A stretch of DNA of 64,000 nucleotides from Flectonema sp. DT1601 (lineage: Eukaryota), in the NCBI GenBank assembly GCA_964019425.1, contig OZ025805.1:62001-126000 (forward strand), given 5' to 3'. The position numbers were made by a program, and so were the translations under genes. The notes under the pieces were generated by a model. That model had not been told where the DNA came from and searched no databases. It saw nothing but the letters and a program-made list of their open reading frames with translations. Each line of letters begins with the position of its first letter. Position 1 is the first letter of the stretch. Shown here piece by piece: positions 2,561 through 54,476 of the stretch.

Positions 2561-2717
2561 ATTTCGCAGCAGATGATAAGAACGTTTTTCAATGCGGGAA
2601 TATTTTCCATCGATCTTGCGGATTGCATTCGATGCTGCGGAAACTTTACTCGTTGGATCCCTCGCAAGCAATGGAAAGCAACCATTTTGCAGACAAAAAT
2701 AATGACTAACCCAGAAA

Positions 2718-6686: not shown

Positions 6687-6759
6687 GACTAACCCAGAAA
6701 AAACATGCAAACGAGACTATATGAAAAACCCGATCAAATAAATAAATAAAAACCCGATC

Positions 6760-9700
6760 TCTCCTGAGAATTATTAACACTTCCTGGAAGACTTCAAAAG
6801 TACCGTACCAATGGAAACAGGGACTAATCAAGCCCATGTTCAAGGCAGGGAAACCTCGTAATGAACTAAAGAGTTTCAGACCAATAACGCTCACCTCGGT
6901 TGTTGGGAAACTTGCGGAGAGGCTCGTGTATGACCGACTCATGCACTGGCTCACAAAACATTCGTCGCTCAGCCCACTACAGGCTGGATTCAGAAAGGGG
7001 AGAAATACCTGCGAGCAGATCACCGTTCTAGTAGATGCTATCGTAAGGAGCCACATGGAAGAAAAGAGATCAGTGTTCTTGTCATTCGACTTTACTGCTG
7101 CGTTTGACAGGATCAACCATAAGATACTTTTATTAAAATTAGTAAAGATGGGTGTTCCGAATGTTATTATCAGATGGATCACAGACTTTCTTACAAACAG
7201 GAAGGTTAGAGTTGAAGCGAATGGGCATTTTAGCGAATTCCGTACTCTGGCTAAGGGGGTTCCCCAGGGATCGATCCTGGGTCCTCTTCTCTATCTTATC
7301 TACGTTGATGACCTCTGCAAGATTTTGGAACTAGAGAAGGAAACAACGACGTCTGCTCTGTATGCGGATGACACAGCATGTGTGGTGTCAGGATCAAACA
7401 TGGAAGAAGCTCTTTCGAATGCTCAGTTAGTACTCGACAAAGTGGATCAATGGTGTTTTGAAAACGACATGGCCTTATCAGTCTCCAAAACCTGTGCGCT
7501 TAAGATGAATGTTCGCTCGAAGGGCATAGTACTAAACGATACGTGTAATCGCGAACTGCTTTTCTCTAGATCTGTTGAGGAACGCATGCTTAAACTTGAC
7601 TATGGTGACATCGAGAAGCATATCAATCTCAAATCACCCAGACCCATGCTTCAAAGTGGCGAAACTATTCTTGAAATTGGAGGAATCCCAATCAAGACAC
7701 AAGAAGAACTCGACAACTTGATGCTGCAATACGTCGTTCGTGAGGACAGCATTATGGTTGTGAGAGCAATATTCAAAACTGCCTTTCTGTTACCGATAGT
7801 CGACTCAGTAAAATACCTCGGGGTTCACATCGACGACAGGCTCACCTTCCACAAACAAGTAGGCAAGATTCACGAAGAATTAAAGAGGGGGATATCACTT
7901 CTGCAGTGCCTCCAGCCGTACGAACTGGACTACAAGACTCTTAACATGGTTAAGAACCTTTATGTAACCGCGAGAATCTCGTATGCGCTTGACAGTTTTG
8001 GTTGGCTGATAAGCAGCAGCGTTGACAGCATCGACTTCGAACTGAGGAAGGTCGCCAGACTGGTTACTGGATGCAGCAAGTGTACGCCAAGAGAGTTACT
8101 GTTGTGGGAGTCTGACATGTATCCTTTTAAACGTCAGATTGAAAAGCAGACAAAAATTGCGTACTACCGGTATAAAGCCATGACTTGGATACCTAATACA
8201 AACAGACTCGCCTCAACACAAAGCTACTGGGCTGGCCTAATCCCTGGCACTGATAGTCAGCGTGAAAGCCAGTGCCTTGTGCAGCCTGACTCGATGGAAC
8301 CCTGGGTATCTCCGACGAACCTTAGGATTAGCAACAGCTGCGGATTTCCGAAGTCCGCGAACCCTGCGGTGGACAAAGAAAAGTTCATGTCGTACATTGG
8401 AACGTTGCCTCCTGTCGACATGGTAATCAACTGCGATGGCTCCTACTCTGCTTCCGGCGCGGCCGGTGCGGCTCATATTGCCAAGTCACGTAGCGGCCTT
8501 CGATCTGCTTACGCGTCTAGGCTTTATCAAGCTGACTGCAGCTACAGGGCTGAACAACATGCTCTGAAGAACGCGGCTAGACATCTGAGAACAGTGTTTA
8601 GCAAAGATCGTTCAATGAAATCTGTGAGGATATTCACGGACTCAAAATCCCTTCTGGATGAACTGCTGGGTGGAAGGTGCAGACAGAGGAATACCGAGTC
8701 CCTCAAGATACTGGAATACCTGCGCATGTGTGAGATGAAAGTGCATTTGCAATTCATCCCCTCGCACATTGGAATCGAGTTTCACGATGAAGTTGACGCG
8801 CTTGCAAAGGAAGCAGCGCACAACAAGAACATCCGACCTGTGCTAGTCAAAGGCACGTACTTCTCGCGATCATCACATGTGAAGCGCTGCATCAAAAAGG
8901 ATCTGCTTAACGTGAGTGGTTACACCTGCTACAAACACCTCATCAGAGGCCGTTCAGTTAAATACCCTCCTGGGATGGAAAGAGCCGACGAGATACGGAT
9001 AGCGAACTTCCGGACAGGATGTCACCCGCTAATTCAGAACTGGCGCAAGACGATCGACTGCCCATTTTGTGGCGAACCGTCCTCACAGGTTCACCTGCTG
9101 CAGGGATGTCAATCTCCCAAACTCGACTCTGCCAGGTTCAAAATCCTGGGCTTCTCAACACTGACCGGCAAGTGGGATCGCGATCGAGAACTTATTATTG
9201 CCAACGAAATTCCTAACCTTGAAGCTCTCTTCACTTTGGCGTGGCTTCCATCACTCGCGTTGATCATAAGGTGGATGGAACAAACATCTAACCTTAGACT
9301 TTGGAAGTAAAGTAGGTGACATGTAGTCGCCAATATCAATTTGTTATTATTTTTAGTATTTTCATCATTATCAATCATCTCCTGGTTGGGTAACTGCACA
9401 TCACCTTCGGTGTTGTCGCAGTGTCTCATCCAACACTCCTGTCTCCTTTTTCTCCTATTCTCCTTATAAATTTCTCTTGAGGGCAGGCCTTCGGGCTGTT
9501 CAAGTGGTCTTTGACCACCGCTCTAGTTATATGCTCGACTCTTTGTTTTCCTTATCGATGGTAGGAATGGTAACCGAATTAGCTTCGTGTGTCCAATTTC
9601 AAGGACGCGTGACCATTTATTTTTTCCGTTGCCGCTCTTCTTACGTCCTCAGGCGGAGCCTACCTATGTTTCCCGTGTTTTCCAATTTGTCAGACTTAAG

Positions 9701-9800
9701 TCAAAAAGAAAGTATAAAAGAAAGACAAAACATAGAAGTGAAAAGAACAAAAAACAAAGAGTTTGGTAGCACAGACGAGTGTAACCAAAAAAAAAAAAAA
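6760..9800 (+). mobile_element. Non-LTR retrotransposon B (RT-RNase H; I/Ingi-like), 5'-truncated
   Basis: TSD AAAAACCCGATC at 6748-6759 and 9796-9807 (overlaps poly(A) 9787-9800). Coding frame begins at 6761 (LLRIINTSW...); ~475-nt 3' UTR. Confidence 0.92.
6761..9310 (+). CDS. Retrotransposon B RT-RNase H-CCHC ORF (N-terminally truncated)
   Basis: FRPITLTS, DFTAAFD, GVPQGSILGP, YADD, KYLGV; RNase H motifs NCDGS, FTDSKS, IPSHIG..DEVDALAK; CPFC...H...C. Confidence 0.92.
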   Translation, partial: LLRIINTSWKTSKVPYQWKQGLIKPMFKAGKPRNELKSFRPITLTSVVGKLAERLVYDRLMHWLTKHSSLSPLQAGFRKGRNTCEQITVLVDAIVRSHMEEKRSVFLSFDFTAAFDRINHKILLLKLVKMGVPNVIIRWITDFLTNRKVRVEANGHFSEFRTLAKGVPQGSILGPLLYLIYVDDLCKILELEKETTTSALYADDTACVVSGSNMEEALSNAQLVLDKVDQWCFENDMALSVSKTCALKMNVRSKGIVLNDTCNRELLFSRSVEERMLKLDYGDIEKHINLKSPRPMLQSGETILEIGGIPIKTQEELDNLMLQYVVREDSIMVVRAIFKTAFLLPIVDSVKYLGVHIDDRLTFHKQVGKIHEELKRGISLLQCLQPYELDYKTLNMVKNLYVTARISYALDSFGWLISSSVDSIDFELRKVARLVTGCSKCTPRELLLWESDMYPFKRQIEKQTKIAYYRYKAMTWIPNTNRLASTQSYWAGLIPGTDSQRESQCLVQPDSMEPWVSPTNLRISNSCGFPKSANPAVDKEKFMSYIGTLPPVDMVINCDGSYSASGAAGAAHIAKSRSGLRSAYASRLYQADCSYRAEQHALKNAARHLRTVFSKDRSMKSVRIFTDSKSLLDELLGGRCRQRNTESLKILEYLRMCEMKVHLQFIPSHIGIEFHDEVDALAKEAAHNKNIRPVLVKGTYFSRSSHVKRCIKKDLLNVSGYTCYKHLIRGRSVKYPPGMERADEIRIANFRTGCHPLIQNWRKTIDCPFCGEPSSQVHLLQGCQSPKLDSARFKILGFSTLTGKWDRDRELIIANEIPNLEALFTLAWLPSLALIIRWMEQTSNLRLWK

Positions 9801-9816
9801 CCCGATCCGGCCAGGC

Positions 9817-35355: not shown

Positions 35356-36655
35356 CACATATTCAAAAAACTTTCATTCCGTTTTGAGAAGACAACGAAT
35401 ACAAATATAATTGAGCCTTTTTGATTTTGTTCAGTAATTCCTGAGGGGGGTGAAGTATAATGGGAGGGTTAAAGAACCACTTGCAATGGGGGCTTGGCGC
35501 TGTTAGTCAGAAAATCAGAAAACGTTTTTTGCTATTTCGAAGTCGCCTCAGTAATACTCCGCGTTATTGATCCCTGACATATTGTTGTGGTATTTGATGC
35601 TTGGTAAGTAGGAGGGTTAGGTTTTTTTTTTTTTTTTTTTTTTACATATTCAAAAAACTTTCATTCCTTTTTGAGAAGAGAGGGAAAAAGAAGAAACCAT
35701 TCAGATCAACCTTATATTTCGTTGAACGCAGACAAAAATCCTATCGCACGGGAATATATATCATGATGACCATAAGAAATACCGGTTCTCAATCTGAATA
35801 GTTTAGTTATTTTAGTTAGCAAAATACAAACTGATGACTACGAGGGGTCTGGGTAGCCCGCATCAGTAAGGACCCAATCGCGAAAATTGTAGTTTCATAG
35901 TATTGGCTGGAAGTGATCGACTTCCAGCCTCCACCTTGCCCAGAGGCTAACAGGTTGTAAACAACTAAAGAAAATAAAAGAGAAATTTTCTGGGGTGAAG
36001 GTGAAAAAAAAAATAAAAAATCTTCTTTCTTTCATATAAAAATAATAATAATGAAATAAACAGTTCGAATGCTGCGTGATCTCTGTAGCCAATCGTGTCG
36101 TATCGTCACTTAAAGTGAGTACCGACAAACTAAAGAAGAAAAGCTTTATAAAAACCGATAAAAAACCAATATTTTTTTTTCCCCTTCTTCTTTGGAGGAA
36201 ACAAACGGGAAAGGGAAAAAGTGGGGCGGTAAATTATTCCTTTAATTATCAAGTTGGGAGAAAGAAAAACAATTTCAATTTCTGAAAGCAGCCGCCATCA
36301 ATACAATTCCCACCCTGAAAAGGAGTGAGGCAATACCGCCGTAAGAAAGGCCAAAGAAAGATATTCTTTGACCGTAGTTGAAGTGGGAGAACAAAAAAAA
36401 AAAAAATAATAATTCGGCAAAAAACTTCACTTTTTACTTTCGTACTAACGCTTTTATTTTGGTTGCGCAACCACAGGTACAAAAATCCTAATAAAGAAAT
36501 AGGTTAGTTACGCTGTACAACAAAAAAAAAATAAAAAAATAGAGGAGGCCGAGTACTACATGTCTAATCAATTACTGCTTACTGATGAATCAGAGAAAAC
36601 ACTTTCACTTTGAGGTTTAGGCCACCTGGTGCGTTATCGTCATCGTCAAGATCAA

Positions 36656-36791
36656 TATTTTTTTTTTTTTTTTTTTTTTCTGGTTACACTCCTGGGTGCA
36701 ACCATCTTCTTTGTTCATTGTTGTTTTCACTTCAATGTTTGCCTTTCTTTTTCACTTTCTTCTGGTAAAAGTCTGACAAGAACCAAGGGAA
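36656..36791 (-). mobile_element. Short 5'-truncated retrocopy related to the 3' end of retrotransposon B
   Basis: Absent from units 2-4. Ends GAGTGTAACCAG + poly(A); aligns by eye with 9687-9800. Confidence 0.85.
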
Positions 36792-37502
36792 CAACATCCG
36801 GAGGATCGGTATTCTTTTCCCCTTTTTTTTTCATATAATCATGTACCGCCATTAATATAAGCGTGCATAAAGAGAGAGGAGGGATCGAACAAACAATAAC
36901 AACGGGAGTCATATTTCCTGTACGCCACCGCTCCCTTGGTGGTGATGGTGGTGATGGTGGTGATGCTGTAATGTCAGGCACCCCAACAAATGAAAGGCCT
37001 AGAAATATCGTGGGAATTACCTTACTTAGATCGGCAGTGAACTCGTCAGATTTCATGGTATTCCCTTCAAGTTGAATTCTCCATCCTAATGGTGACTCAA
37101 GAACATATCCAGTGTGAGAGTTGATTGCTGTTCCTTCACAAGTGAAACACTTTCCAATTTTCCATGTTGAACCATTATTTAGTGCTCTGCATATTTCTAA
37201 GCACTTGGGAAGAGATACGAAGTCCTTTGAGAGCTCGTTCACAATAATTGAAAGTTTAGACTTCACATCTTCCAAAGGGATGTGCGATACGTAAACAGAT
37301 AACAATACAGTTCGAGGTGTTTGTATACTCGCTAGGGGTTCTCCATCTGTCGGTGTTTGGTAGTTAACAAAATTATATTTTTTTAAAATAAAAAAAAAAT
37401 ATATATACCAAAGGGAGTATCTTTATGCATTTCCGCTTCTTCATTTAGACCCAACCCCACCGACAATATCGCAAACAGGACTACTGCATGTGTGTAGATC
37501 AT
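36727..37502 (-). CDS. Array gene copy 1: type-I membrane protein, C-terminus replaced by a retro-insertion
   Basis: Exon 1 from ATG 37502 (MIYTHAVVLFAILSVGLG signal peptide), intron 37408-37347, TM VVIVCSIPPLSLCTLILMAV; extra SPP repeats. Confidence 0.7.
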
Positions 37503-39049
37503 TACTGACTGAAATGAGAATGAATAATTTGAAACTGACTATAATGCTGTCGAATAGGAGGGTTTAACTGTTCGAGTTTGTACGTAAAATACAAATGTAT
37601 TGTATCATAAACAACATAACGATAATTTAACATTAGTTCTGAGAGACAGTTGACTAAAGGTAATGTTAGTCTAATTTATTAAATCACATATGTGCTGTTG
37701 AATAGGGTGGGGTGGGTTATGGAGGTTTAAATTGACAATAATTACTGACTACATAACAAGATGCTTTTCCGGTATACCAAAAAAAAATCTAAAATTGTAC
37801 AAAAAAAAAAAAAAGAATTGGCTTTAACTTCAACTATACAGAAAATAATGATATAACACTGTGATTTTTTGTTTGCACGAAACCGGATAATTGAGCCTTT
37901 TTGATTTTGTTCAGTAATTCCTGAGGGGGGTGAAGTATAATGGGAGGGTTAAAGAACCACTTGCAATGGGGGCTTGGCGCTGTTAGTCAGAAAATCAGAA
38001 AACGTTTTTTGCTATTTCGAAGTCGCCTCAGTAATACTCCGCGTTATTGATCCCTGACATATTGTTGTGGTATTTGATGCTTGGTAAGTAGGAGGGTTAG
38101 GTTTTTTTTTTTTTTTTTTTTTTTACATATTCAAAAAACTTTCATTCCTTTTTGAGAAGAGAGGGAAAAAGAAGAAACCATTCAGATCAACCTTATATTT
38201 CGTTGAACGCAGACAAAAATCCTGTCGCACGGGAATATATATCATGATGACCATAAGAAATACCGGTTCTCAATCTGAATAGTTTAGTTATTTTAGTTAG
38301 CAAAATACAAACTGATGACTACGAGGGGTCTGGGTAGCCCGCATCAGTAAGGACCCAATCGCGAAAATTGTAGTTTCATAGTATTGGCTGGAAGTGATCG
38401 ACTTCCAGCCTCCACCTTGCCCAGAGGCTAACAGGTTGTAAACAACTAAAGAAAATAAAAGAGAAATTTTCTGGGGTGAAGGTGAAAAAAAAAATAAAAA
38501 ATCTTCTTTCTTTCATATAAAAATAATAATAATGAAATAAACAGTTCGAATGCTGCGTGATCTCTGTAGCCAATCGTGTCGTATCGTCACTTAAAGTGAG
38601 TACCGACAAACTAAAGAAGAAAAGCTTTATAAAAACTGATAAAAAACCAATATTTTTTTTTTCCCCTTCTTCTTTGGAGGAAACAAACGGGAAAGGGAAA
38701 AGTGGGGCGGTAAATTTGTCCTTTAATTATCAAGTTGGGAGAAAGAAAAACAATTTCAATTTCTGAAAGCAGCCGCCATCAATACAATTCCCACCCTGAA
38801 AAGGAGTGAGGCAATACCGCCGTAAGAAAGGCCAAAGAAAGATATTCTTTGACCGTAGTTGAAGTGGGAGAACAAAAAAAAAAAAATAATAATTCGGCAA
38901 AAAACTTCACTTTTTACTTTCGTACTAACGCTTTTATTTTGTTTGCGCAACCACAGGTACAAAAATCCTAATAAAGAAATAGGTTAGTTACGCTGTACAA
39001 CAAAAAAAAAAATAAAAAAAATAGAGGAGGCCGAGTACTACATGTCTAA

Positions 39050-39840
39050 TCAATTACTGCTTACTGATGAATCAGAGAAAACATAAACATCAGGCTGACT
39101 TTCACTTCGAGGTTTAGCCCACTTGTCAGGTGCGTTATCGTCATCGTCAAGATCAACATCCGGAGGATCGGTATTCTTTTCCCCTTTTTTTTTCATATAC
39201 TTATGTACCGCCATTAATATAAGCCCGCATAAACTGAGACCAGGGATCGAACAAACAATAACAACGGGAGTCATATTTCCTGTAGGCCACTCCCTTGGTG
39301 ATGCTGTAATGTCAGGTACCCCACCAAATGAAAGGCCTAGAAATATCGTGGGAATTACCTTACTTAGATCGGCAGTGAACTCGTCAGATTTCATGGTATT
39401 CCCTTCAAGTTGAATTCTCCATCCTAATAGTGACTCAAGAACATATCCAGTGTGAGAGTTGATTGTTGTTCCTTCACAAGTGAAACAGTTTCCAAATTTC
39501 CATGTTGAACCATTATTTAGTGCTCTGCATATTTCTAAGCACTTGGGAAGAGATACGAAGTCCTTTGAGAGCTCGTTCACAATAATTGAAAGTTTAGACT
39601 TCACATCTTCCAAAGGGATGTGCAATACGTAAACAGATAACAATACAGTTCGAGGTGTTTGTATACTCGCTGGGGGTTCTCCATCTGTCGGTGTTTGGTA
39701 GTTAACAAAATTATATTTTTTTAAAATAAAAAAAAAATATATATACCAAAGGGAGTATCTTTATGCATTTCCGCTTCTTCATTTAGACCCAACCCCACCG
39801 ACAATATCGCAAACAGGACTACTGCATGTGTGTAGATCAT
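39050..39840 (-). CDS. Array gene copy 2: signal peptide + single-TM protein, unknown function
   Basis: Same two-exon structure; acidic cytoplasmic tail (DVDLDDDDNAPD). Confidence 0.75.
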
Positions 39841-41387
39841 TACTGACTGAAATGAGAATGAATAATTTGAAACTGACTATAATGCTGTCGAATAGGAGGG
39901 TTTAACTGTTCGAGTTTGTACGTAAAATACAAATGTATTGTATCATAAACAACATAACGATAATTTAACATTAGTTCTGAGAGACAGTTGACTAAAGGTA
40001 ATGTTAGTCTAATTTATTAAATCACATATGTGCTGTTGAATAGGGTGGGGTGGGTTATGGAGGTTTAAATTGACAATAATTACTGACTACATAACAAGAT
40101 GCTTTTCCGGTATACCAAAAAAAAATCTAAAATTGTACAAAAAAAAAAAAAAGAATTGGCTTTAACTTCAACTATACAGAAAATAATGATATAACACTGT
40201 GATTTTTTGTTTGCACGAAACCGGATAATTGAGCCTTTTTGATTTTGTTCAGTAATTCCTGAGGGGGGTGAAGTATAATGGGAGGGTTAAAGAACCACTT
40301 GCAATGGGGGCTTGGCGCTGTTAGTCAGAAAATCAGAAAACGTTTTTTGCTATTTCGAAGTCGCCTCAGTAATACTCCGCGTTATTGATCCCTGACATAT
40401 TGTTGTGGTATTTGATGCTTGGTAAGTAGGAGGGTTAGGTTTTTTTTTTTTTTTTTTTTTTTACATATTCAAAAAACTTTCATTCCTTTTTGAGAAGAGA
40501 GGGAAAAAGAAGAAACCATTCAGATCAACCTTATATTTCGTTGAACGCAGACAAAAATCCTGTCGCACGGGAATATATATCATGATGACCATAAGAAATA
40601 CCGGTTCTCAATCTGAATAGTTTAGTTATTTTAGTTAGCAAAATACAAACTGATGACTACGAGGGGTCTGGGTAGCCCGCATCAGTAAGGACCCAATCGC
40701 GAAAATTGTAGTTTCATAGTATTGGCTGGAAGTGATCGACTTCCAGCCTCCACCTTGCCCAGAGGCTAACAGGTTGTAAACAACTAAAGAAAATAAAAGA
40801 GAAATTTTCTGGGGTGAAGGTGAAAAAAAAAATAAAAAATCTTCTTTCTTTCATATAAAAATAATAATAATGAAATAAACAGTTCGAATGCTGCGTGATC
40901 TCTGTAGCCAATCGTGTCGTATCGTCACTTAAAGTGAGTACCGACAAACTAAAGAAGAAAAGCTTTATAAAAACTGATAAAAAACCAATATTTTTTTTTT
41001 CCCCTTCTTCTTTGGAGGAAACAAACGGGAAAGGGAAAAGTGGGGCGGTAAATTTGTCCTTTAATTATCAAGTTGGGAGAAAGAAAAACAATTTCAATTT
41101 CTGAAAGCAGCCGCCATCAATACAATTCCCACCCTGAAAAGGAGTGAGGCAATACCGCCGTAAGAAAGGCCAAAGAAAGATATTCTTTGACCGTAGTTGA
41201 AGTGGGAGAACAAAAAAAAAAAAATAATAATTCGGCAAAAAACTTCACTTTTTACTTTCGTACTAACGCTTTTATTTTGTTTGCGCAACCACAGGTACAA
41301 AAATCCTAATAAAGAAATAGGTTAGTTACGCTGTACAACAAAAAAAAAAATAAAAAAAATAGAGGAGGCCGAGTACTACATGTCTAA

Positions 41388-42178
41388 TCAATTACTGCTT
41401 ACTGATGAATCAGAGAAAACATAAACATCAGGCTGACTTTCACTTCGAGGTTTAGCCCACTTGTCAGGTGCGTTATCGTCATCGTCAAGATCAACATCCG
41501 GAGGATCGGTATTCTTTTCCCCTTTTTTTTTCATATACTTATGTACCGCCATTAATATAAGCCCGCATAAACTGAGACCAGGGATCGAACAAACAATAAC
41601 AACGGGAGTCATATTTCCTGTAGGCCACTCCCTTGGTGATGCTGTAATGTCAGGTACCCCACCAAATGAAAGGCCTAGAAATATCGTGGGAATTACCTTA
41701 CTTAGATCGGCAGTGAACTCGTCAGATTTCATGGTATTCCCTTCAAGTTGAATTCTCCATCCTAATAGTGACTCAAGAACATATCCAGTGTGAGAGTTGA
41801 TTGTTGTTCCTTCACAAGTGAAACAGTTTCCAAATTTCCATGTTGAACCATTATTTAGTGCTCTGCATATTTCTAAGCACTTGGGAAGAGATACGAAGTC
41901 CTTTGAGAGCTCGTTCACAATAATTGAAAGTTTAGACTTCACATCTTCCAAAGGGATGTGCAATACGTAAACAGATAACAATACAGTTCGAGGTGTTTGT
42001 ATACTCGCTGGGGGTTCTCCATCTGTCGGTGTTTGGTAGTTAACAAAATTATATTTTTTTAAAATAAAAAAAAAATATATATACCAAAGGGAGTATCTTT
42101 ATGCATTTCCGCTTCTTCATTTAGACCCAACCCCACCGACAATATCGCAAACAGGACTACTGCATGTGTGTAGATCAT
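41388..42178 (-). CDS. Array gene copy 3
   Basis: Protein identical to copy 2 in the ORF track. Confidence 0.75.
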
Positions 42179-43725
42179 TACTGACTGAAATGAGAATGAA
42201 TAATTTGAAACTGACTATAATGCTGTCGAATAGGAGGGTTTAACTGTTCGAGTTTGTACGTAAAATACAAATGTATTGTATCATAAACAACATAACGATA
42301 ATTTAACATTAGTTCTGAGAGACAGTTGACTAAAGGTAATGTTAGTCTAATTTATTAAATCACATATGTGCTGTTGAATAGGGTGGGGTGGGTTATGGAG
42401 GTTTAAATTGACAATAATTACTGACTACATAACAAGATGCTTTTCCGGTATACCAAAAAAAAATCTAAAATTGTACAAAAAAAAAAAAAAGAATTGGCTT
42501 TAACTTCAACTATACAGAAAATAATGATATAACACTGTGATTTTTTGTTTGCACGAAACCGGATAATTGAGCCTTTTTGATTTTGTTCAGTAATTCCTGA
42601 GGGGGGTGAAGTATAATGGGAGGGTTAAAGAACCACTTGCAATGGGGGCTTGGCGCTGTTAGTCAGAAAATCAGAAAACGTTTTTTGCTATTTCGAAGTC
42701 GCCTCAGTAATACTCCGCGTTATTGATCCCTGACATATTGTTGTGGTATTTGATGCTTGGTAAGTAGGAGGGTTAGGTTTTTTTTTTTTTTTTTTTTTTT
42801 ACATATTCAAAAAACTTTCATTCCTTTTTGAGAAGAGAGGGAAAAAGAAGAAACCATTCAGATCAACCTTATATTTCGTTGAACGCAGACAAAAATCCTG
42901 TCGCACGGGAATATATATCATGATGACCATAAGAAATACCGGTTCTCAATCTGAATAGTTTAGTTATTTTAGTTAGCAAAATACAAACTGATGACTACGA
43001 GGGGTCTGGGTAGCCCGCATCAGTAAGGACCCAATCGCGAAAATTGTAGTTTCATAGTATTGGCTGGAAGTGATCGACTTCCAGCCTCCACCTTGCCCAG
43101 AGGCTAACAGGTTGTAAACAACTAAAGAAAATAAAAGAGAAATTTTCTGGGGTGAAGGTGAAAAAAAAAATAAAAAATCTTCTTTCTTTCATATAAAAAT
43201 AATAATAATGAAATAAACAGTTCGAATGCTGCGTGATCTCTGTAGCCAATCGTGTCGTATCGTCACTTAAAGTGAGTACCGACAAACTAAAGAAGAAAAG
43301 CTTTATAAAAACTGATAAAAAACCAATATTTTTTTTTTCCCCTTCTTCTTTGGAGGAAACAAACGGGAAAGGGAAAAGTGGGGCGGTAAATTTGTCCTTT
43401 AATTATCAAGTTGGGAGAAAGAAAAACAATTTCAATTTCTGAAAGCAGCCGCCATCAATACAATTCCCACCCTGAAAAGGAGTGAGGCAATACCGCCGTA
43501 AGAAAGGCCAAAGAAAGATATTCTTTGACCGTAGTTGAAGTGGGAGAACAAAAAAAAAAAAATAATAATTCGGCAAAAAACTTCACTTTTTACTTTCGTA
43601 CTAACGCTTTTATTTTGTTTGCGCAACCACAGGTACAAAAATCCTAATAAAGAAATAGGTTAGTTACGCTGTACAACAAAAAAAAAAATAAAAAAAATAG
43701 AGGAGGCCGAGTACTACATGTCTAA

Positions 43726-44518
43726 TCAATTACTGCTTACTGATGAATCAGAGAAAACATAAACATCAGGCTGACTTTCACTTCGAGGTTTAGCCCACTT
43801 GTCAGGTGCGTTATCGTCATCGTCAAGATCAACATCCGGAGGATCGGTATTCTTTTCCCCTTTTTTTTTCATATACTTATGTACCGCCATTAATATAAGC
43901 CCGCATAAACTGAGACCAGGGATCGAACAAACAATAACAACGGGAGTCATATTTCCTGTAGGCCACTCCCTTGGTGATGCTGTAATGTCAGGTACCCCAC
44001 CAAATGAAAGGCCTAGAAATATCGTGGGAATTACCTTACTTAGATCGGCAGTGAACTCGTCAGATTTCATGGTATTCCCTTCAAGTTGAATTCTCCATCC
44101 TAATAGTGACTCAAGAACATATCCAGTGTGAGAGTTGATTGCTGTTCTTTCACAAGTGAAACAGTTTCCAATTTTCCATGTTGAACCATTATTTAGTGCT
44201 CTGCATATTTCTAAGCACTTGGGAAGAGATACGAAGTCCTTTGAGAGCTCGTTCACAATAATTGAAAGTTTAGACTTCACATCTTTCAAAGGGATGTGCA
44301 ATACGTAAACAGATAACAATACAGTTCGAGGTGTTTGTATACTCGCTGGGGGTTCTCCATCTGTCGGTGTTTGGTAGTTAACAAAATTATATTTTTTTAA
44401 AATAAAAAAAAAATATATATATACCAAAGGGAGTATCTTTATGCATTTCCGCTTCTTCATTTAGACCCAACCCCACCGACAATATCGCAAACAGGACTAC
44501 TGCATGTGTGTAGATCAT
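43726..44518 (-). CDS. Array gene copy 4
   Basis: A few substitutions versus copies 2-3 and a 2-nt longer intron. Confidence 0.75.
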
Positions 44519-44840
44519 TACTGACTGAAATGAGAATGAATAATTTGAAACTGACTATAATGCTGTCGAATAGGAGGGTTTAACTGTTCGAGTTTGTACG
44601 TAAAATACAAATGTATTGTATCATAAACAACATAACGATAATTTAACATTAGTTCTGAGAGACAGTTGACTAAAGGTAATGTTAGTCTAATTTATTAAAT
44701 CACATATGTGCTGTTGAATAGGGTGGGGTGGGTTATGGAGGTTTAAATTGACAATAATTACTGACTACATAACAAGATGCTTTTCCGGTATACCAAAAAA
44801 AAATCTAAAATTGTACAAAAAAAAAAAAAAAAAAAAAAAT

Positions 44841-45956: not shown

Positions 45957-46694
45957 TTTTTTTATTTTTTTTGTAGAAACACCAAACAGCTGAACTAGTA
46001 TAGGAAAGGGTCGGGTAATTCATTCGAAAATTCATAAAACAGAGCAACCGAATGTTTAGTTGAAAACAACTTAAATAATTGAAACATATATTCTTGTTCC
46101 TATGAAGGATGAAGTACAACAGGGTTAACAGATCTCAATAGAGATTCTCCTGTCGAGTTATTTTCCGCAATCGCTAACATCGAATCTAAACAAAAGAATG
46201 CTTTGGTTTAATTACGATGACTGAAATTTGGTAAAACACACAGAACTGTGACTTATCTCATAACAAATCATTCTGGGTCAGTTAGTACCAAATAAAAACA
46301 AAAAGTAATCCAGTCCGCATTGCCTTTGTGTGTACAACCTTAGTTAGTCCTTAGTTACCTGCAGCGACCTCTCGTCATCCCATAGAGCGACGAGCAACCT
46401 TCAGGACCGGGTTCTCCAATATTTATTAATCTGTTCTAAGACTACAACATCCTATGAGAAATGAATCCCCCACCTCAGTGAGTGATGTCAACTTGCAGAG
46501 ATCGATCTCTTCCAACGAGGTGCATCGTGATAAACAACACCTCCCCAAAGAAACTATAATTATTCTCTTTATTCTCTTTCAGTTTTTTCTTTTATTTTTT
46601 TCTTCTTTCCTAATTTCTCATTACAAAAAAAGAACGCCTTGCTCACAGAAATAAGAATAACAAAAAGCAAAACCTTAAGAATCAATTCACCACT

Positions 46695-47411
46695 TTATCC
46701 TGAATGATCAATCGCTGCTTTCACAGACTTCACAAAGAGAGCGCTATTACTTTCAGGCAGCTGCACAGATTCAAGAGCGTAGCATTTACTGAGAAAGCGA
46801 TCACCAATAGTGGTGATACTACTAAGACTTGAAAGGTCAAGAGAAGTGATTTGTTCACAAAAAACATAAGAAACAATGCCAATAGTGGTGACACTACTAA
46901 GACCTGAAAGGTCAAGAGAAGTGATTTGTACACAGAAATATAAGAAACGATTACTTATAGTGGTGACACCATTAAGACCTGAAAAGTCAAGAGTAATTTG
47001 TGAACAACGAGACAAGAATCTATCTCCAATAGTAGTAACTAGTGAGATGTGTTGTTGGAATTTGAATTGCGGAAAGCAATCAGTTTGGCATCTGAAGGAA
47101 GCAGCTCACCGTCAACAGTGAGGCAACCATCTTCTGTGAATGTCGGAGTGTCCAGATATAAGTACTCCGTAATGTGGTCTCTCATCCAAAGAAGCAGCTT
47201 CTCCCGTTTTGCATCATCAACAAACCAGCTTTTACTGAATATCCTAAACTGCTTCTTCCACATTTCCAACTCGCTGTTTGCAACCACTCCATGATCTGCC
47301 AGCCGATCAGTTTCGCAAAGGGTATCACCAGCAAATGAGAGTTCAACTTCATCCGGATCGACATCCCACTCCCCAGCTGCCGCCGTCAACACGTCGCTTA
47401 CAACTGAATCA
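46695..47411 (-). pseudogene. Ubiquitin-like + 25-aa LRR gene, 5'-truncated and frameshifted
   Basis: Paralogue of the 54285 gene. 4-bp deletion near 47049 splits ORFs 47039-47551 and 46695-47015; homology stops at about 47411. Confidence 0.85.
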
Positions 47412-47722: not shown

Positions 47723-48893
47723 TCGCTTTACATTACTTATATGAACCTGAGAAAGAAGTATATGTTAAGATTGAAGGCAAAGACAAACACCAGAATTGTA
47801 TCCAACAAAAGAAATATCTACACTGTGAAGGGGTGCAGATTACTTCTGCGTAAGGGGTTATGTTTTAAAGTAGTAGTTGGAGGAAGAGGAGTGGGAGCAG
47901 AGTCTGAAAAAGGGAAAAATTAAACTAAAGGAAAGAAACGTTCTTTATCTACCCCAAGGGGATTTCACCGCAGGAGGAGACTTAACCGAGAAAGATATTT
48001 AGAAAGCTTTGATTCTGACCAGTCAGGATTGATCAGTGCATCTACTATAGAAAGGTCGTCTATAACAATATTTAAGTCGGTAGTTTTATATGAAATATCA
48101 ATAACTTCCATAACATGGTTCTTCACATCAGAGCGCAGAAGTGAGAAACTTGTCTTCCTTTCGATCTGCGCGATTAGTTTCTTCCTCACAAAAACACTCC
48201 GAAATGATGAAAATTTCTCCGAAAAAGGAAAACTCCCGCACATCCCTCCTGAGCAAGGAAATCCTTTATGTAAGGAAAAGATAATCAAAAACAAAAACAA
48301 GCAAGAAAAAACTGAAAGAGTAGGAAGATAGAATAGCAGATACCATATCTCGAATAGGGAATGGGGGATCCATTTGTGTCACATTCGTGTGCTTGTTGTG
48401 TTTAATATAAAACTCTCAAAACTACTTTATAAACTGACAATCTGTTATTCTTGTCCTTTCCACGATTCCAGTTTCACAAGTTCACAAAAGTATTATTTTT
48501 TTTTCGTTTAATTTTTCAATTGTTTCTTTCCGCAGAAATAAATATAACAAAAAACAAAACTTTAAAATTTAATTCACCACTTTATCCTGAATGATCAATC
48601 GCTGCATTCACAGACTCCTCAAAGAGAGCGCTATTACTTTCAGGCAGCGGCACAGATTCAAGATCGTTGCATTCACTGAGAAAGAGATCACCAATAGTAG
48701 TGACTCTACTAAGACTTGAAAGGTCAAGAGAAGTGATTTGTGAACAGTGAGGCAAGAAACAATTACCAATATTTGTGACACTACTAAAACCAGAAAAGTC
48801 AAGAGAAGTGATTTGTTCACAGTAAAATAAGAAATAATAGTGGTGACACTACTAAGACTTGAAAGGTCAAGAATAGGAATTCGTGAACAGTCA

Positions 48894-49591
48894 AAAAAAA
48901 TTAACCAGTGTTTAGGGTTTTGAATCCCATGGATCCCGTCGCTCAGGCGGTCCGGTGGAGAACCGGGTAGGGCACTGTGAACGAGTTGCGGTCCAGGTGG
49001 CGTCGGAAGGCCACCGCACCAACAGATTTGTTTCTTCGCACAACAGTAGCTTGGAGACCGTAAGAGACCCAAGGTGGTTCACAACCGCTCGAACAACTGC
49101 GTGTGAAGGAACAAGATTGAAAAGAAAAGAATATAAGAAAAGAAATGCCACACACAAAAAACGACGTAGTAAAGCAGAGAGGTAGGGGGAGGGATGGCCT
49201 CTTTCTCCACACATTGCATGGGAGCTCCCCGAGTAACTCAAGGGGCTGATACTGTTAATACATTTCAGGCGACCTGAACTTATAATCCCCCCATGCGTGA
49301 AAAGACTAAACGGGGGAAGTTTGAAGGAAATGGGGGTAAAGGGAAATCATGCCACTAAGGAAAAAATAAAAACCCGGTGGCCCCTGTGAGCTCTGGGTGC
49401 CTGAGTATCCCGGGCCGGATCACCTGACCTTCTGCTATGTTGTCCTTTTTTTTTAAAGGTTAGGCTACCGGAAAATAAAACGGGGGTAAAAGAATACACA
49501 GCAACAACAACAATACGTCAGCACTCTAGTTACACACAAGGTGCATCCAGGTAACACCACGAGGAGGCGCGCTATCCGAGTTTCGTTACCC
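48894..49591 (-). mobile_element. Non-autonomous ~698-bp retroposon X, copy 2
   Basis: About 99% identical to 52879-53573. Flanked by TGACTGTTCACAAATTACTA (49592-49611) and a 2-mismatch copy (48874-48893); 3' T-tract. Confidence 0.9.
49520..49591 (-). ncRNA. HDV-like self-cleaving ribozyme (5' end of X copy 2)
   Basis: Manual fold identical to 53502-53573. Confidence 0.8.
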
Positions 49592-49911
49592 TAGTAATTT
49601 GTGAACAGTCAGACAAGAAATCATCACCAATAGTGGTGATACTACTAAGACTTGAATGGTCAAGAGAAGTGATTTGTTCATAGAAATATAAAAAGAAATT
49701 CTCAATAGTGGTGACACTACTAAGACCTGAAAGGTCAAGAATAGTAATTTGTAAACAGTTAGACAAGAAACCATCACCAATAGTGGTGACACTACTAAGA
49801 CATGAAAGGTCAAGAATTGTAATTTTTGAACAGTAAGACAAGAAATAATTCCCAATAGTTGTGACACTACTAAGACCTGAAAGGTCAAGAATAGTAATTT
49901 GTAAACAGTTA

Positions 49912-52708
49912 TATGTACCATTTTGAGTGCTGTCATTCAGGCTTGCTAGCACGGTGAGATGACGAGGCACTGGTTCGGCCAACCTAAGTTAACCCCTTGT
50001 CCTGTGGTTCCCTTTCCGGGGTTTCCTCTGCTTTCGGTTTCATTTGTTTGGTGAAACCTAATTTTAGAAGCGATGTGCTGGTTTGCATATCATGCTTCGT
50101 CGGCTGCTTCGCCCTCCTCGTCAACGTCCTTATAATTGGCCCGTGATGCTTTTTGTTGCAGCATTTCGTGGCAGTCCGTTGTTCCGGATCCGGATTCCGC
50201 TTGCAGTCGTTGCAGGGAGCCATCTCGTGGTGACGGCATCGGTGGTGGCTGTTTCTGCAACATTGCTCAGATCCTCTGCCGATCACTATGCAGACTGCAC
50301 ATGGAGTAAGCTTGTGCTTGCTGCAAAAGTCCCATATCGGTATTTGTCCATCTTCATCCCCCAGAGTGTGATGGTTGTGGCAGCACTGGTAGATGGTGTT
50401 TCCGGCCCGTCGACAACTATTGCATTTCTTCTTGAAGTGTCCGTAGCACGTCGAGTTCATCGTTCCTTGTCCCTCCGCGATGCCCGGTCTCTTGACGACC
50501 TCGGGTGGCGGGCGTGTCGGTCCTCGCTCGCAGAGCTCCCTCCTCAGCTGTACGTCTTTTTCCTTTGATGGGAAAAGTCGTGCCGCGGTTATCCATTTCT
50601 CCGCTCTCCCTTCCCTCTCGCTCGAGTGCCTGCACTCAGTCTCGAAGCCGAATCTGATTTTGTCAGCTTTTCCGTCGTTCGCCTCCTGGACCGTCCTCCG
50701 AATTGTGTCTACTGTTTCGTCTCCCATCAGAAAAGCTGGTCGTTTCTTCAAACCTTTCAGTACCGGGGCTCCTAGTGGACGTAAGGCTTTGTTGCTTCCT
50801 ACGCAGTAGTCGGGAAAGGTTCTTTGTTCCTCGCCTTCTAAATGCTTGTGAACCAAGTTCAATCTTAGCATCAGTCCACACATGACGTCAGCTTTTTTCC
50901 CGGCGGCTCTGTCTTTGGTGCACTTCGCTACGTGGCCTTCGTGGACTGTGGTCGGTATGTCAACCCCCGCATACGCTTCGAAGTCGATCGCTAATTCCAG
51001 GAAGGTGACTCCGACTCCGTCTGGCTGTCGAGGCCACTTCAGTTCCCTCAGGTAGCTCGCAAGCGCTAAGTACAAGGTCAATCCAAGGGCTTCGGGCCAT
51101 TGGGTGTATACTGGCATGTACTTTTCCAGTTTGTTGTTGTATCTCATAACTACTTCCGGTTCCTTGTTCCCAGCGTATTCCACAACCATCAGCCGTCTCT
51201 CCTCCAGTTGTTGGTAGTCGTCCCTGCGGAGCCTGATCCGTGCGAACATTCGTTGTAGGTCTCCAGTGAGCCCCGCCGGCAGTTCCACATTGTCGGGCTT
51301 GATGCCGAGTAGCCTCAGGCAATTGGGCCAATCGCATCGAACTTGTAGCATCACTTGCGGGTATTCCTGTCGGATTGTGTCATAAGCTCTGCAATCCCAG
51401 TTCACGTGCTCGAGGGTCTCCGTCCTCTCTACGTCGTCAACCTCCTCGCAGTGCGCGCAGTTCTTGTTTCCCGCCTTCATCGAGCCAGTGTACACGTTGT
51501 CCAGGAGGCAGTGCTTCACTACTCCGCGCAGGTAGGGGTCGCCCTTTCCTTCCTTCAGGACCTTCAGGGTCTCTTTCCGGTCGATGCCCGCTTCAATACC
51601 TCTCAGGTTTACCCGTCTCGTTTCCGCAATTGTTTTGTTCCAGGTGAAACGCCTGCACGCCTCTCTGACATCGTGCCGCCAGCGCCCCGCATCCAGCCGT
51701 CCGTGTTCGGTCGTCCCTCCCGGACCTTCGAAGACCGAGAAAGTTGACCATTCCCATCCAAGTTCCTTCAGAGTACTCAGGGCGAGGCCGACTGGTCCTC
51801 TCGTCGCTTCAGTGTGCTCTTGCAGGTGTTCCCATACCCTGCGTATCCTCTCAGTTAGCTTCGGTAGCATTCTGGTGAGTGCAAGGAGTCTGTTGTACCT
51901 AATGTACGTCGCGGGATCCACACAATGTCCCTTGCAGAGTAGCGTTAGGCCCATGGTGTGCGACATCTTAGTTCTTTTCCCTCCAAGTTTGCGGAAAATC
52001 CCCGTTGCCCTTGCTCTTCTCAGCAGTCCGAGTCGCGTCGCATCGGGATCGTACAGTGCCGTTCCGAAGAGCGCCTTGGGCATGACACTAGCTGCAGCTA
52101 TCTGTTCCTTCGCTTGATATCTGAGCGGAAGTAACCGGATTCGCCTCGCTCTATCGAGCACTTCTTCTGTGATCCTCCCCATCTGCTTGGTGGTTCCTTT
52201 CATACTGAGGTGGCATCCCACGATATCGACACTGTCATCGAAGTCCAGTGTTGTGTCCCCCATTGTGATGTTGGTCTGGCCCTGGTCTCTGTTCGAGAAC
52301 CACTTGCACTTCTGAGGCGCGAGTTCTTGTCCGGTCAGGGTGCAGAACTCCGCAACGACTTCTACGCCTTCTTGTAGCTTCGTTCGTGATCCAAACAACG
52401 TCAGGTCGTCCGCATACGATCCGGGCGTCACATCGGCTTCCTTCTCGATTGCTTTGCTGAGTATCGAGCTCAGCGCATTGAAGAGCACCACGCTGAGCGG
52501 GCATCCTTGCAGTATTCCGTTGGTGGTGGCAAATTCTTCTCCGACGCCACTCGGGAACTTGAATCTCCTTCTGAGTCGCCGGTAGACATCCGTCACAGTT
52601 CTCAGGATCTTATCACCGAGGCCCAATTCCTTCACTAATTTCAGGAGGATGTCGTGCGGAATCAGGTCGAAACACTTCCTGAAGTCCGTGGTCACTCCTG
52701 CAATCTCT
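49912..52708 (-). mobile_element. 5'-truncated non-LTR retrotransposon C inserted at the LRR target motif
   Basis: GC-rich block. 5' flank TGACTGTTCACAAATTACTA (52709-52728), 3' flank TAACTGTTTACAAATTACTA (49892-49911); short structured 3' UTR with no poly(A). Confidence 0.88.
49984..52707 (-). CDS. Retrotransposon C ORF: RT, CCHC knuckle, 'FLELAIDF' region, triple Cys/His repeat
   Basis: TDFRKCFDLIPH, NGILQGCPLS, SYADD, IVGCHL; CAHC..ETLEHVNWDC; C-terminal CxxH-x4-CxxC..CC..HH x3. Confidence 0.9.
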   Translation of the reverse strand, partial: EIAGVTTDFRKCFDLIPHDILLKLVKELGLGDKILRTVTDVYRRLRRRFKFPSGVGEEFATTNGILQGCPLSVVLFNALSSILSKAIEKEADVTPGSYADDLTLFGSRTKLQEGVEVVAEFCTLTGQELAPQKCKWFSNRDQGQTNITMGDTTLDFDDSVDIVGCHLSMKGTTKQMGRITEEVLDRARRIRLLPLRYQAKEQIAAASVMPKALFGTALYDPDATRLGLLRRARATGIFRKLGGKRTKMSHTMGLTLLCKGHCVDPATYIRYNRLLALTRMLPKLTERIRRVWEHLQEHTEATRGPVGLALSTLKELGWEWSTFSVFEGPGGTTEHGRLDAGRWRHDVREACRRFTWNKTIAETRRVNLRGIEAGIDRKETLKVLKEGKGDPYLRGVVKHCLLDNVYTGSMKAGNKNCAHCEEVDDVERTETLEHVNWDCRAYDTIRQEYPQVMLQVRCDWPNCLRLLGIKPDNVELPAGLTGDLQRMFARIRLRRDDYQQLEERRLMVVEYAGNKEPEVVMRYNNKLEKYMPVYTQWPEALGLTLYLALASYLRELKWPRQPDGVGVTFLELAIDFEAYAGVDIPTTVHEGHVAKCTKDRAAGKKADVMCGLMLRLNLVHKHLEGEEQRTFPDYCVGSNKALRPLGAPVLKGLKKRPAFLMGDETVDTIRRTVQEANDGKADKIRFGFETECRHSSEREGRAEKWITAARLFPSKEKDVQLRRELCERGPTRPPPEVVKRPGIAEGQGTMNSTCYGHFKKKCNSCRRAGNTIYQCCHNHHTLGDEDGQIPIWDFCSKHKLTPCAVCIVIGRGSEQCCRNSHHRCRHHEMAPCNDCKRNPDPEQRTATKCCNKKHHGPIIRTLTRRAKQPTKHDMQTSTSLLKLGFTKQMKPKAEETPEREPQDKGLT

Positions 52709-52878
52709 TAGTAATTTGTGAACAGTCAGACAAGAAATCATCACCAATAGTGGTGACACTACTAAGACCTGAAAAGTCAAGAGAAGTGATTTTTTCACAG
52801 GATAACAGGAAATAATACCCAATAGTGGTGACGCTACTAAGACTTGAAAGGTCAAGAATAGTAATTTGTGAACAGTCA

Positions 52879-53573
52879 AAATTAACCAGTGTTTAGGGTT
52901 TTGAATCCCATGGATCCCGTCGCTCAGGCGGTCCGATGGAGAACCGGGTAGGGCACTGTGAACGAGTTGCGGTCCAGGTGGCGTCGGAAGGCCACCGCAC
53001 CAACAGATTTGTTTCTTCGCACAACAGTAGCTTGGAGACCGTAAGAGACCCAAGGTGGTTCACAACCGCTCGAACAACCGCGTGTGAAGGAACAAGATTG
53101 AAAAGAAAAGAATATAAGAAAAGAAATGCCACACACAAAAAACGACGTAGTAAAGCAGAGAGGTAGGGGGAGGGATGGCCTCTTTCTCCACACATTGCAT
53201 GGGAGCTCCCCGAGTAACTCGCGGGGCTGATACTGTTAATACATTTCAGGCGACCTGAACTTATAATCCCCCCATGCGTGAAAAGACTAAACGGGGGAAG
53301 TTTGAAGGAAATGGGGGTAAAGGGAAATCATGCCACTAAGGAAAAAATAAAAACCCGGTGGCCCCTGTGAGCTCTGGGTGCCTGAGTATCCCGGGCCGGA
53401 TCACCTGACCTTCTGCTATGTTGTCCTTTTTTTTTTAAAGGTTAGGCTACCGGAAAATAAAACGGGGGTAAAAGAATACACAGCAACAACAACAATACGT
53501 CAGCACTCTAGTTACACACAAGGTGCATCCAGGTAACACCACGAGGAGGCGCGCTATCCGAGTTTCGTTACCC
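52879..53573 (-). mobile_element. Non-autonomous 695-bp retroposon X, copy 1
   Basis: Perfect 20-bp TSD TGACTGTTCACAAATTACTA (plus-strand 53574-53593 and 52859-52878); no credible ORF. Confidence 0.92.
53502..53573 (-). ncRNA. HDV-like self-cleaving ribozyme (5' end of X copy 1)
   Basis: P1 GGGUAAC/GUUACCU (G1-U wobble), P2 AGCGC/GUGCU, P3 GCC/GGU, L3 UCCUCGU, P1.1 CC/GG, P4 AUGCAC/GUGUGU, J4/2 AAC-UAGA containing the putative catalytic C. Confidence 0.82.
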
Positions 53574-54476
53574 TAGTAATTTGTGAACAGTCAGACAAGA
53601 AATCATCACCAATAGTGGTGACACTACTAAGACCTGAAAAGTCAAGAGAAGTGATTTGTGAACAGTAATGCAAGAAATAATTCCCAATAGTGGTGACACT
53701 ACTAAGACTTGAAAGGTCTAGAGAAGTGATTTGTTTACAGCTTGACAAGAAATTATCACCAATAGTGGTGACACTACTAAGACCTGGAAGGTCAAGAATA
53801 GTAATTTGTGAACAACGAGACAAGAATCTATCTCCAATAGTAGTAACTAGTGAGATGTCTGTGTTGTTGGGATTTGAATTGCGGAAAGCAATCTGTTTGG
53901 CATCTGAAGGAAGCAGCTCACCGTCAACAGTGAGGCAACCATCTGCTGTGAATGTCGGAATGTCCAGATATAAGTACTCCGTAATGTGGTCTCTCATCCA
54001 AAGAAGCAGCTTCTCCCGTTTTGCATCATCAACAAACCAGCTTTTACCGAATATCCTGAACTACTTCTTCCACATTTCAAACTCGCTGTTTGCAACCACT
54101 CCATGATCTGCCAGCCGATCAGTTTCGCAAAGGGTATCACCAGCAAACGAGAGTTCAACTTCATCCGGATCGACATCCCACTCCTCAGCCGCCACCGTCA
54201 ACACGTCGATCACAACTGAATCAGTACCAGCCGTCACTGTCACTGCGGGGAGTCCCCAATCCGGACACGTCACAAAAACTTGCATTGTTGGTTTTTTTTT
54301 ATAATATATTTGCTGTGTTAATGGGGGAATGCCTGAAAACCAAAAAAGAGATTAGAAAAAAAAAATTGAACTCCAATAAGAAATATTCAAAAAAATACAT
54401 TGTTTTTTGTATAATATGAACAATGAAAAAAAAAAGGAAAACTCTCGTCTATTTAAAAATAAATCGTAAATCACAT

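Follow-up and report, generated by a model that had tools for sequence, protein, structure and literature searches.

Three Insertions at One Base of a Coding Repeat

Why would a single protein-coding gene be interrupted three times at the same position of its internal repeat? The question is raised by a Ubl-LRR gene in a 64,000-nt stretch of the Flectonema sp. DT1601 genome (contig OZ025805.1; hereafter the window). The gene runs on the minus strand from 54285 to 48582 and encodes a Ubl domain, a cap, 13 LRR units of 75 bp, and a C-terminal cap. Its 5' part (53574..54285) comprises the ubiquitin-like domain, the cap region, and LRR repeats 1–4, for which Pfam returned LRR_5 (1.5e-13) and a weak Rad60-SLD match (E 0.004); it also carries a premature in-frame TAG at 54061-54063. 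The repeat array resumes between the inserts at 52709..52858 and 49592..49891, each segment ending in the target 19-mer (52727-52709 and 49610-49592, respectively), while the 3' part (48582..48892) holds an imperfect duplication copy, a 7-bp deletion downstream of the last insert, the final repeats, and the C-terminal cap. A frameshifted, insert-free Ubl-LRR paralog lies on the same strand at 46646..47411. The host genes of the window are long ORFs that appear to have few introns and all lie on the minus strand, a layout suggestive of a protist of the euglenozoan type that transcribes its genes polycistronically. A contig of 492,556 nt combines a match to a window protein with many LRR family members and two full-length proteins of element C described below. 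About four tandem 2.34-kb units, 95–99% identical and carrying a 236-aa ORF without a Pfam match, were also observed at 35407-44833 of the window.

The inserts are two copies of a short element, X (X1, 52878..53573; X2, 48893..49591), and one copy of a reverse transcriptase element, C (49911..52708; RVT_1, 2.7e-18 by Pfam), all on the minus strand and thus in sense with the host gene, in agreement with the initial annotation. Their 5' junctions fall at 53573 (X1), 52708 (C), and 49591 (X2), and each insert starts directly after one fixed base of the 75-bp unit. The claim that the gene is cut three times after the same sequence was borne out, as an identical 37-mer precedes all three junctions, occurs exactly three times in the window, and is followed by an insert every time. 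Assuming independence, the chance of three inserts at one base of a 75-nt unit is about (1/75)^2. Downstream of X1, C, and X2, the LRR repeat resumes 19 nt earlier and in the same register; both junction registers are equal for X and C, with a duplication span of 19–20 nt. The annotated repetition of a ~20-bp target end downstream of the inserts is perfect for X1 only (upstream copy 53574..53592, downstream copy 52859..52877, 19/19), whereas two mismatches each were found at X2 (48892-48874, 17/19) and at C (49892..49910, 17/19), whose downstream flank has the register of X's duplication and the exact sequence of the NCLQIT repeat at 49760-49742.

It had been asked whether the junctions are one insertion copied by segmental duplication. 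The X1 and X2 bodies are identical at 687/692 positions (99.3%), and the flanks at 88.7% (left 150 bp) and 84.7% (right 150 bp), which is near the upper end of the 72–88% range among ordinary LRR repeats. A recent segmental duplication misfits because bodies of 99.3% identity stand against flanks of 85–89%, and other genes are hit too; the junctions do not represent one copied insertion. Unequal flanks at three of the four two-sided inserts (X2, C, and P0121, see below) exceed the expectation from the age of X and count against our preferred explanation. They could stem from recombination between inserts, from nicks in different units, or from decay followed by conversion of X. The unequal flanks at X2 and C would also agree with a triple insertion that merely reflects repeat misassembly, as would the finding that no sequencing-run contig spans the whole 48.6–54.3 kb stretch. 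However, the same junction type occurs on 11–12 other contigs and on sequencing-run contigs, and a misassembly could change the window locus but not produce the common register, so that we regard this reading as barely credible.

X Is a Non-Autonomous Element With a Predicted 5' Ribozyme

X measures 696–699 nt (696 nt in X1), is non-autonomous, and has no Pfam-bearing ORF among those tested. Its 3' end is a T run (T4 in X1, T8 in X2, longer in P0120 and P0121). An origin of X as a Pol III SINE was ruled out by internal T runs and by the lack of a tRNA in X (ARAGORN). One X-internal ORF of 76 aa was found by exact look-up on four contigs, the largest of which (515557 nt) also bears LRR genes. 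The X 5' 32-mer had no match among metagenome contigs, and the third 5' frame (41 aa) had none among representative proteins, a search that likewise missed known carriers such as P0088.

The first 73 nt of X fit an HDV-like fold. Our own descriptor places this predicted ribozyme at 53501..53573 (minus strand) in X1, and the same ribozyme is predicted in X2. The descriptor fold is a P1-P2-P3-P1.1-P4 nested double pseudoknot in which G1 is the first base of X, and hence the junction base, and a G1.U wobble closes P1 at the predicted cleavage site; X position 63 is the C with the predicted catalytic role. Composed post hoc, after the X sequence had been inspected, the descriptor matched the starts of X1 and X2 only (128 kb, both strands) and had no match in 20 shuffles. 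Rfam returned no ribozyme match over 48500-54400, and the plain fold of the ribozyme region was no better than shuffles (z −0.22) with a folding program that is blind to the pseudoknot; plain folding of the X and C ends gave no z-score < −0.4. Read-through peptides of three other X copies (P0089, P0099, and P0130) imply the exchanges T18C, detectable only through loss of a stop codon, and A40G, both of which preserve predicted ribozyme pairs.

C Is an APE-Type LINE

Element C is an APE-type non-LTR LINE, represented in the window by a 5'-truncated copy of a young family. Its remnant ORF (52707-49984) encodes 907 residues that are 99% identical to residues 636–1542 of P0002 and is followed by a 3' UTR of ~73 nt without poly(A). 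The endonuclease type, which the initial annotation had proposed to read from a full-length copy, is evident from P0002, whose single ORF (1542 aa) contains Exo_endo_phos (14-203) and RVT_1 (570-778); Pfam gave no match to an RLE family in C. The best PDB match of P0002 was human L1 ORF2p (E 6e-17; R2, 1e-10). No RNase H was detected at E 0.1 in P0002 or in its sister LINE P0003, which is 47% identical to C. C shares 27% identity over 207–243 aa with the RNase H LINEs of the window and is outside the ingi clade. The C cluster has 22 members; the 15 listed lie on 10 contigs and include four full-length 1542-aa copies that are 98–99% alike. The nearest relatives of C are unnamed proteins (25–50% identity), and relatives at 28–54% identity occur in 13 metagenome loci, which are mostly partial and yielded no usable flanks and no convincing 5' ribozyme. 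A 6325-nt contig from sequencing run X1 holds C with 3995 nt upstream of the window truncation point, ~2 kb of which precede the main C ORF, and no X piece among the matches listed. Sequencing runs X2 and X3 do not cover the X or C body. Run X1 shows an adapter-like loose end and is not recorded as RNA.

The C-terminus of C contains three Cys/His repeats (P0002 1389-1490; approximately 50098..50450, minus strand) of the form C-x2-H-x4-C-x2-C-xn-CC-x3/4-HH. The triple motif has no Pfam match and is conserved in P0003 and, twice, in P0004. It is a candidate nucleic-acid-binding module, and a role in target or RNA binding would be a guess; the AlphaFold model of the C-terminal 471 aa has a pLDDT of 36.5.

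Other LINEs were noted alongside C. Copies of the sister LINE family P0029-P0039 (1577 aa, 99% identical) lie on contigs mostly without LRR genes, and P0035 reads from the 3' end of this LINE into a shifted RT segment, a hint that copies may lie in tandem and use a different target. In the window itself, a pair of LINEs, each encoding RT and RNase H and ending in poly(A), is arranged in tandem on the plus strand (2704-6700 and 6746-9807), opposite to the host genes. The first also has an APE and is flanked by a 14-bp duplication (2704, 6687). A 12-mer occurs at 6724, 6748, and 9796, its last copy 10 nt ahead of a tRNA-Thr (9817), and the element is possibly targeted upstream of tRNA genes.

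Insertions in the Same Register Recur Across the LRR Family

We surveyed the family through its predicted proteins, using as junction signature that an LRR frame entering full-length X is predicted to end in xVTKLG. The set consisted of 66 proteins of 133–426 aa, minus six unrelated ones (P0114-P0119), plus 12 cluster members, giving 72; contigs were told apart and matched by size alone, and such a survey shows only the first break of each gene. Sixteen of the 72 proteins, on 11 contigs, end in [WG]VTKLG immediately past the repeat's Thr. The junction residue is W or G in all 16 and R in the window copies, so none of them comes from the window. The breaks lie one to nine repeats into the array and follow 14 different 8-residue repeat endings. 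The initial annotation had restricted insertion to the GDDFLSDCSQIT variant, which these 16 other junctions contradict; variant repeats are indeed empty in the window gene, but in the family X was found after many of them. Antisense read-through into X was absent among the 72 proteins.

Further proteins carry related breaks. P0104 has the same X junction in a shifted frame, P0121 enters a 5'-truncated X at the exact target base, and P0079 passes into another truncated copy of C at the very codon of the LRR repeat that X interrupts. P0096 and P0097 stop directly after the target Thr. In P0108 (300098-nt contig), a third insert type begins at the same LRR base with 59 C-terminal residues, which may be the 5' end of a full-length C or a second passenger. 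Two observations count against our preferred explanation, namely the off-register X junctions of P0088 (by ~4 nt) and P0101 (by ~30 nt), and the number of C junctions at the target site, which is only two (window and P0079). Ten divergent family members (P0093, P0102, P0103, P0105, P0106, and P0109-P0113) contained no insert; breaks of the above kinds occur in 23 of the remaining 62, and of the close family members observed, a third or more carry an interruption.

A family tree was built from the N-terminal 140 residues of 53 of the 72 rows; the other 19 failed the anchor pattern, and none of these belongs to the 17 X rows. The X label changes 12 times on the tree (shuffled mean 14.6), with at least seven changes forced by strong branches, and X insertions are scattered among intact sister genes. 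Duplication of genes, together with unequal crossing-over and conversion among them, could in principle have spread a single or few old insertions while keeping X homogeneous. Tandem LRR genes recombine readily, and the unequal flanks at three of the four two-sided inserts point to recombination after insertion. On the other hand, 5' truncation points and T-tail lengths differ at the same site (X1, X2, P0120, and P0121), two unrelated elements share one base, and X follows 14 different repeat endings at scattered tree positions. As a sole cause, spread by recombination is already largely refuted, and we consider it very unlikely. The three window junctions, the 16 proteins, and P0104, P0121, and P0079 are separate insertion events that hit the same position of a target present in many copies. 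Insertion into the multicopy LRR unit, as originally proposed, is repeated, oriented, and in the same register across the family, beyond chance.

Junctions and Contigs Approached From the Element Side

Exclusivity for LRR repeats is not demonstrable from most of these junctions because they were found via searches from the LRR side. We also consider a hot spot, in which C and X follow a loose consensus matched by the LRR unit through coincidence and many of their copies lie elsewhere, as for ingi/L1Tc in RHS genes. For L1Tc, the accessible text of one report gives about half of the copies as associated with RHS genes and the others as apparently random (PMC6967402). With the X 3' frame as sole query, both proteins recovered (2/2; protein lengths of 50–160 only) enter the LRR repeat in register. 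Among the matches listed for sequencing run X1, one contig spans the X 5' end and one the X 3' end, and both flanks are LRR variants unlike those of the window, joined at the same base. All four junctions of this small element-side sample (2 + 2) lie in LRR repeats, which speaks against a loose hot spot. The contigs point the same way: among the matches listed, nine of 10 contigs with C belong to the 30 with close LRR genes, while the sister LINE P0003 reaches one of six (Fisher p 0.008, or 0.04 when two short contigs are dropped). The tenth C contig (270979 nt) has no LRR gene among the matches listed, as a hot spot would allow. Taken together, the hot spot is a possible but doubtful account.

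Proposed Mechanism

On this evidence, X and C have landed time and again, in sense with the host gene, on a single base of the 75-bp coding repeat, and we consider it probable that C cuts the repeat sequence-specifically and mobilizes X, whose 5' end would be freed by the predicted ribozyme. From the common registers alone, C is likely the motor of X. This pairing can only be inferred because X has no sequence in common with the C copy, which covers the 3' part of C. The difference between their 3' ends, a T run in X and no tail in C, counts against it, as does the absence of X from the matches listed for the 6325-nt C contig. TCAAAA and TGGT do occur near the 3' ends of both X (52878-52915) and C (49911-49930) on the minus strand, with different spacing, and are too short to count as common sequence.

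The lack of common sequence also speaks for X being targeted by a motor other than C, i.e., the sister family P0003 or an unseen element. Further points on that side are the third insert of P0108 at the same base and the stop of P0096 and P0097 directly past the target Thr. Against it, C uses both cut registers of X in the window and again in P0079, P0003 contigs seldom bear LRR genes (1/6), and the RNase H LINEs of the window have poly(A) ends, 12–14-bp duplications, and other sites. We judge another motor to be unlikely.

The target-primed model is standard for non-LTR retrotransposons. Applied to this case with C as the motor, the C enzyme would nick the bottom strand directly ahead of the codon preceding the repeat's Cys and the top strand 19–20 nt further on, past the first base of the codon after Thr. 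The first nick would prime reverse transcription, with one or two A.U pairs formed on the tail of X. Since occupied repeats differ in the bases at the first nick, recognition would rest on conserved surrounding bases. An upstream 37-mer carried by the element RNA was ruled out as an alternative, since C lacks its 5' part and the flanks differ in other copies. X RNA may be supplied by read-through transcripts of host genes and trimmed by the predicted ribozyme, and self-cleavage at G1 would let many X copies start on the same base. We infer this trimming by analogy to L1Tc, whose ribozyme is proposed, in the accessible text, to act in polycistronic transcripts (PMC3185411).

With up to about a dozen sites per LRR gene, each repeat expansion creates landing sites and each landing severs the LRR protein at the same residue. 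Whether the expansion of an LRR family is limited, tracked, or shuffled by an element thus becomes a testable question. The expanded family may serve the elements as a multicopy 'safe harbour', as the initial annotation proposed. A bolder version of our preferred explanation holds that a LINE strictly confined to LRR repeats, together with passengers that have a ribozyme head and a U tail, remodels the LRR repertoire by truncating, shortening, and swapping arrays between genes. In that case, the two nicks may fall in different repeat units, 99%-identical in-register inserts would serve as recombination anchors, and the unequal flanks at three of the four two-sided inserts would be the footprint of the process. 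We hold such remodeling to be somewhat unlikely.

Comparison With Known Systems

The initial annotation knew of no described element with this type of target, but precedents exist in the RHS hot spot (ingi/RIME, L1Tc) and in TcTREZO in MASP pseudogenes. The following comparison is based on the accessible parts of the cited papers. RHS genes of trypanosomes are a coding-region hot spot for ingi/RIME, with over half of the family disrupted (PMC7563717). Like ingi/RIME in T. brucei and L1Tc/NARTc in T. cruzi, the X/C system combines an APE LINE with a non-autonomous element, here its probable partner (PMC7563717, PMC6967402, PMC3185411, PMC12278014). Further likenesses are an HDV-like ribozyme at the 5' end, here only predicted and only for X, and a fixed insertion position within the coding sequence of a large protein family, many members of which have become pseudogenes. 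However, RHS genes offer one site per gene near the ATP/GTP-binding motif, as opposed to a coding tandem-repeat unit present many times per gene. Ingi/L1Tc encode an RNase H and carry a poly(A) tail, their first 77 nt recur in the partner, and their site specificity is a relative one, whereas C has no RNase H match, X ends in a T run, the C copy has no tail, and X shares nothing with the 3' part of C. The X/C system thus works like RHS/ingi-RIME but is no member of it, given the lack of RNase H and poly(A) and the repeat-unit target.

TcTREZO lies mostly inside MASP pseudogenes of T. cruzi and was proposed as a source of recombination sites (PMC5814959, PMC6967402). It resembles X/C in being site-specific and mainly within one expanded protein-coding family; unlike X/C, it is composite, has no named motor in the accessible text, and its target is not an internal coding repeat. 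With Tx1- and R1-clade target-specific LINEs, C would share an APE-based sequence specificity for a multicopy target (PMC4640811). R2 and CRE/SLACS/CZAR are similar in their fixed site and in the co-transcription with the target that is proposed here for X, and R2 in its HDV-like ribozyme, a predicted one in X (PMC5814959, PMC4640811), but these elements use a restriction-like endonuclease on RNA-gene targets, whereas C has an N-terminal APE.

We found no LRR-targeting element in the accessible literature (excluding subscription journals, Repbase, and supplements). The target lists of target-specific LINEs contain no protein-coding repeat in the part accessible (PMC4640811), and the accessible text on a diplonemid reports many uncurated LINE ORFs without mention of such targeting (PMC10161547). 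According to these partial sources, target-specific LINEs insert into RNA genes, telomeres, microsatellites, or other elements, and the RHS and MASP cases comprise one site per gene. Fixed-base insertion of the kind described here would add the coding repeat of a protein family to the destinations of targeted retrotransposition, and C, as an APE-type LINE with several intact ORFs, would provide a new sequence-specific integrator to study. Relative to the known systems, what is new is the target itself, a coding tandem-repeat unit, and its use by a LINE lineage other than ingi/L1Tc.
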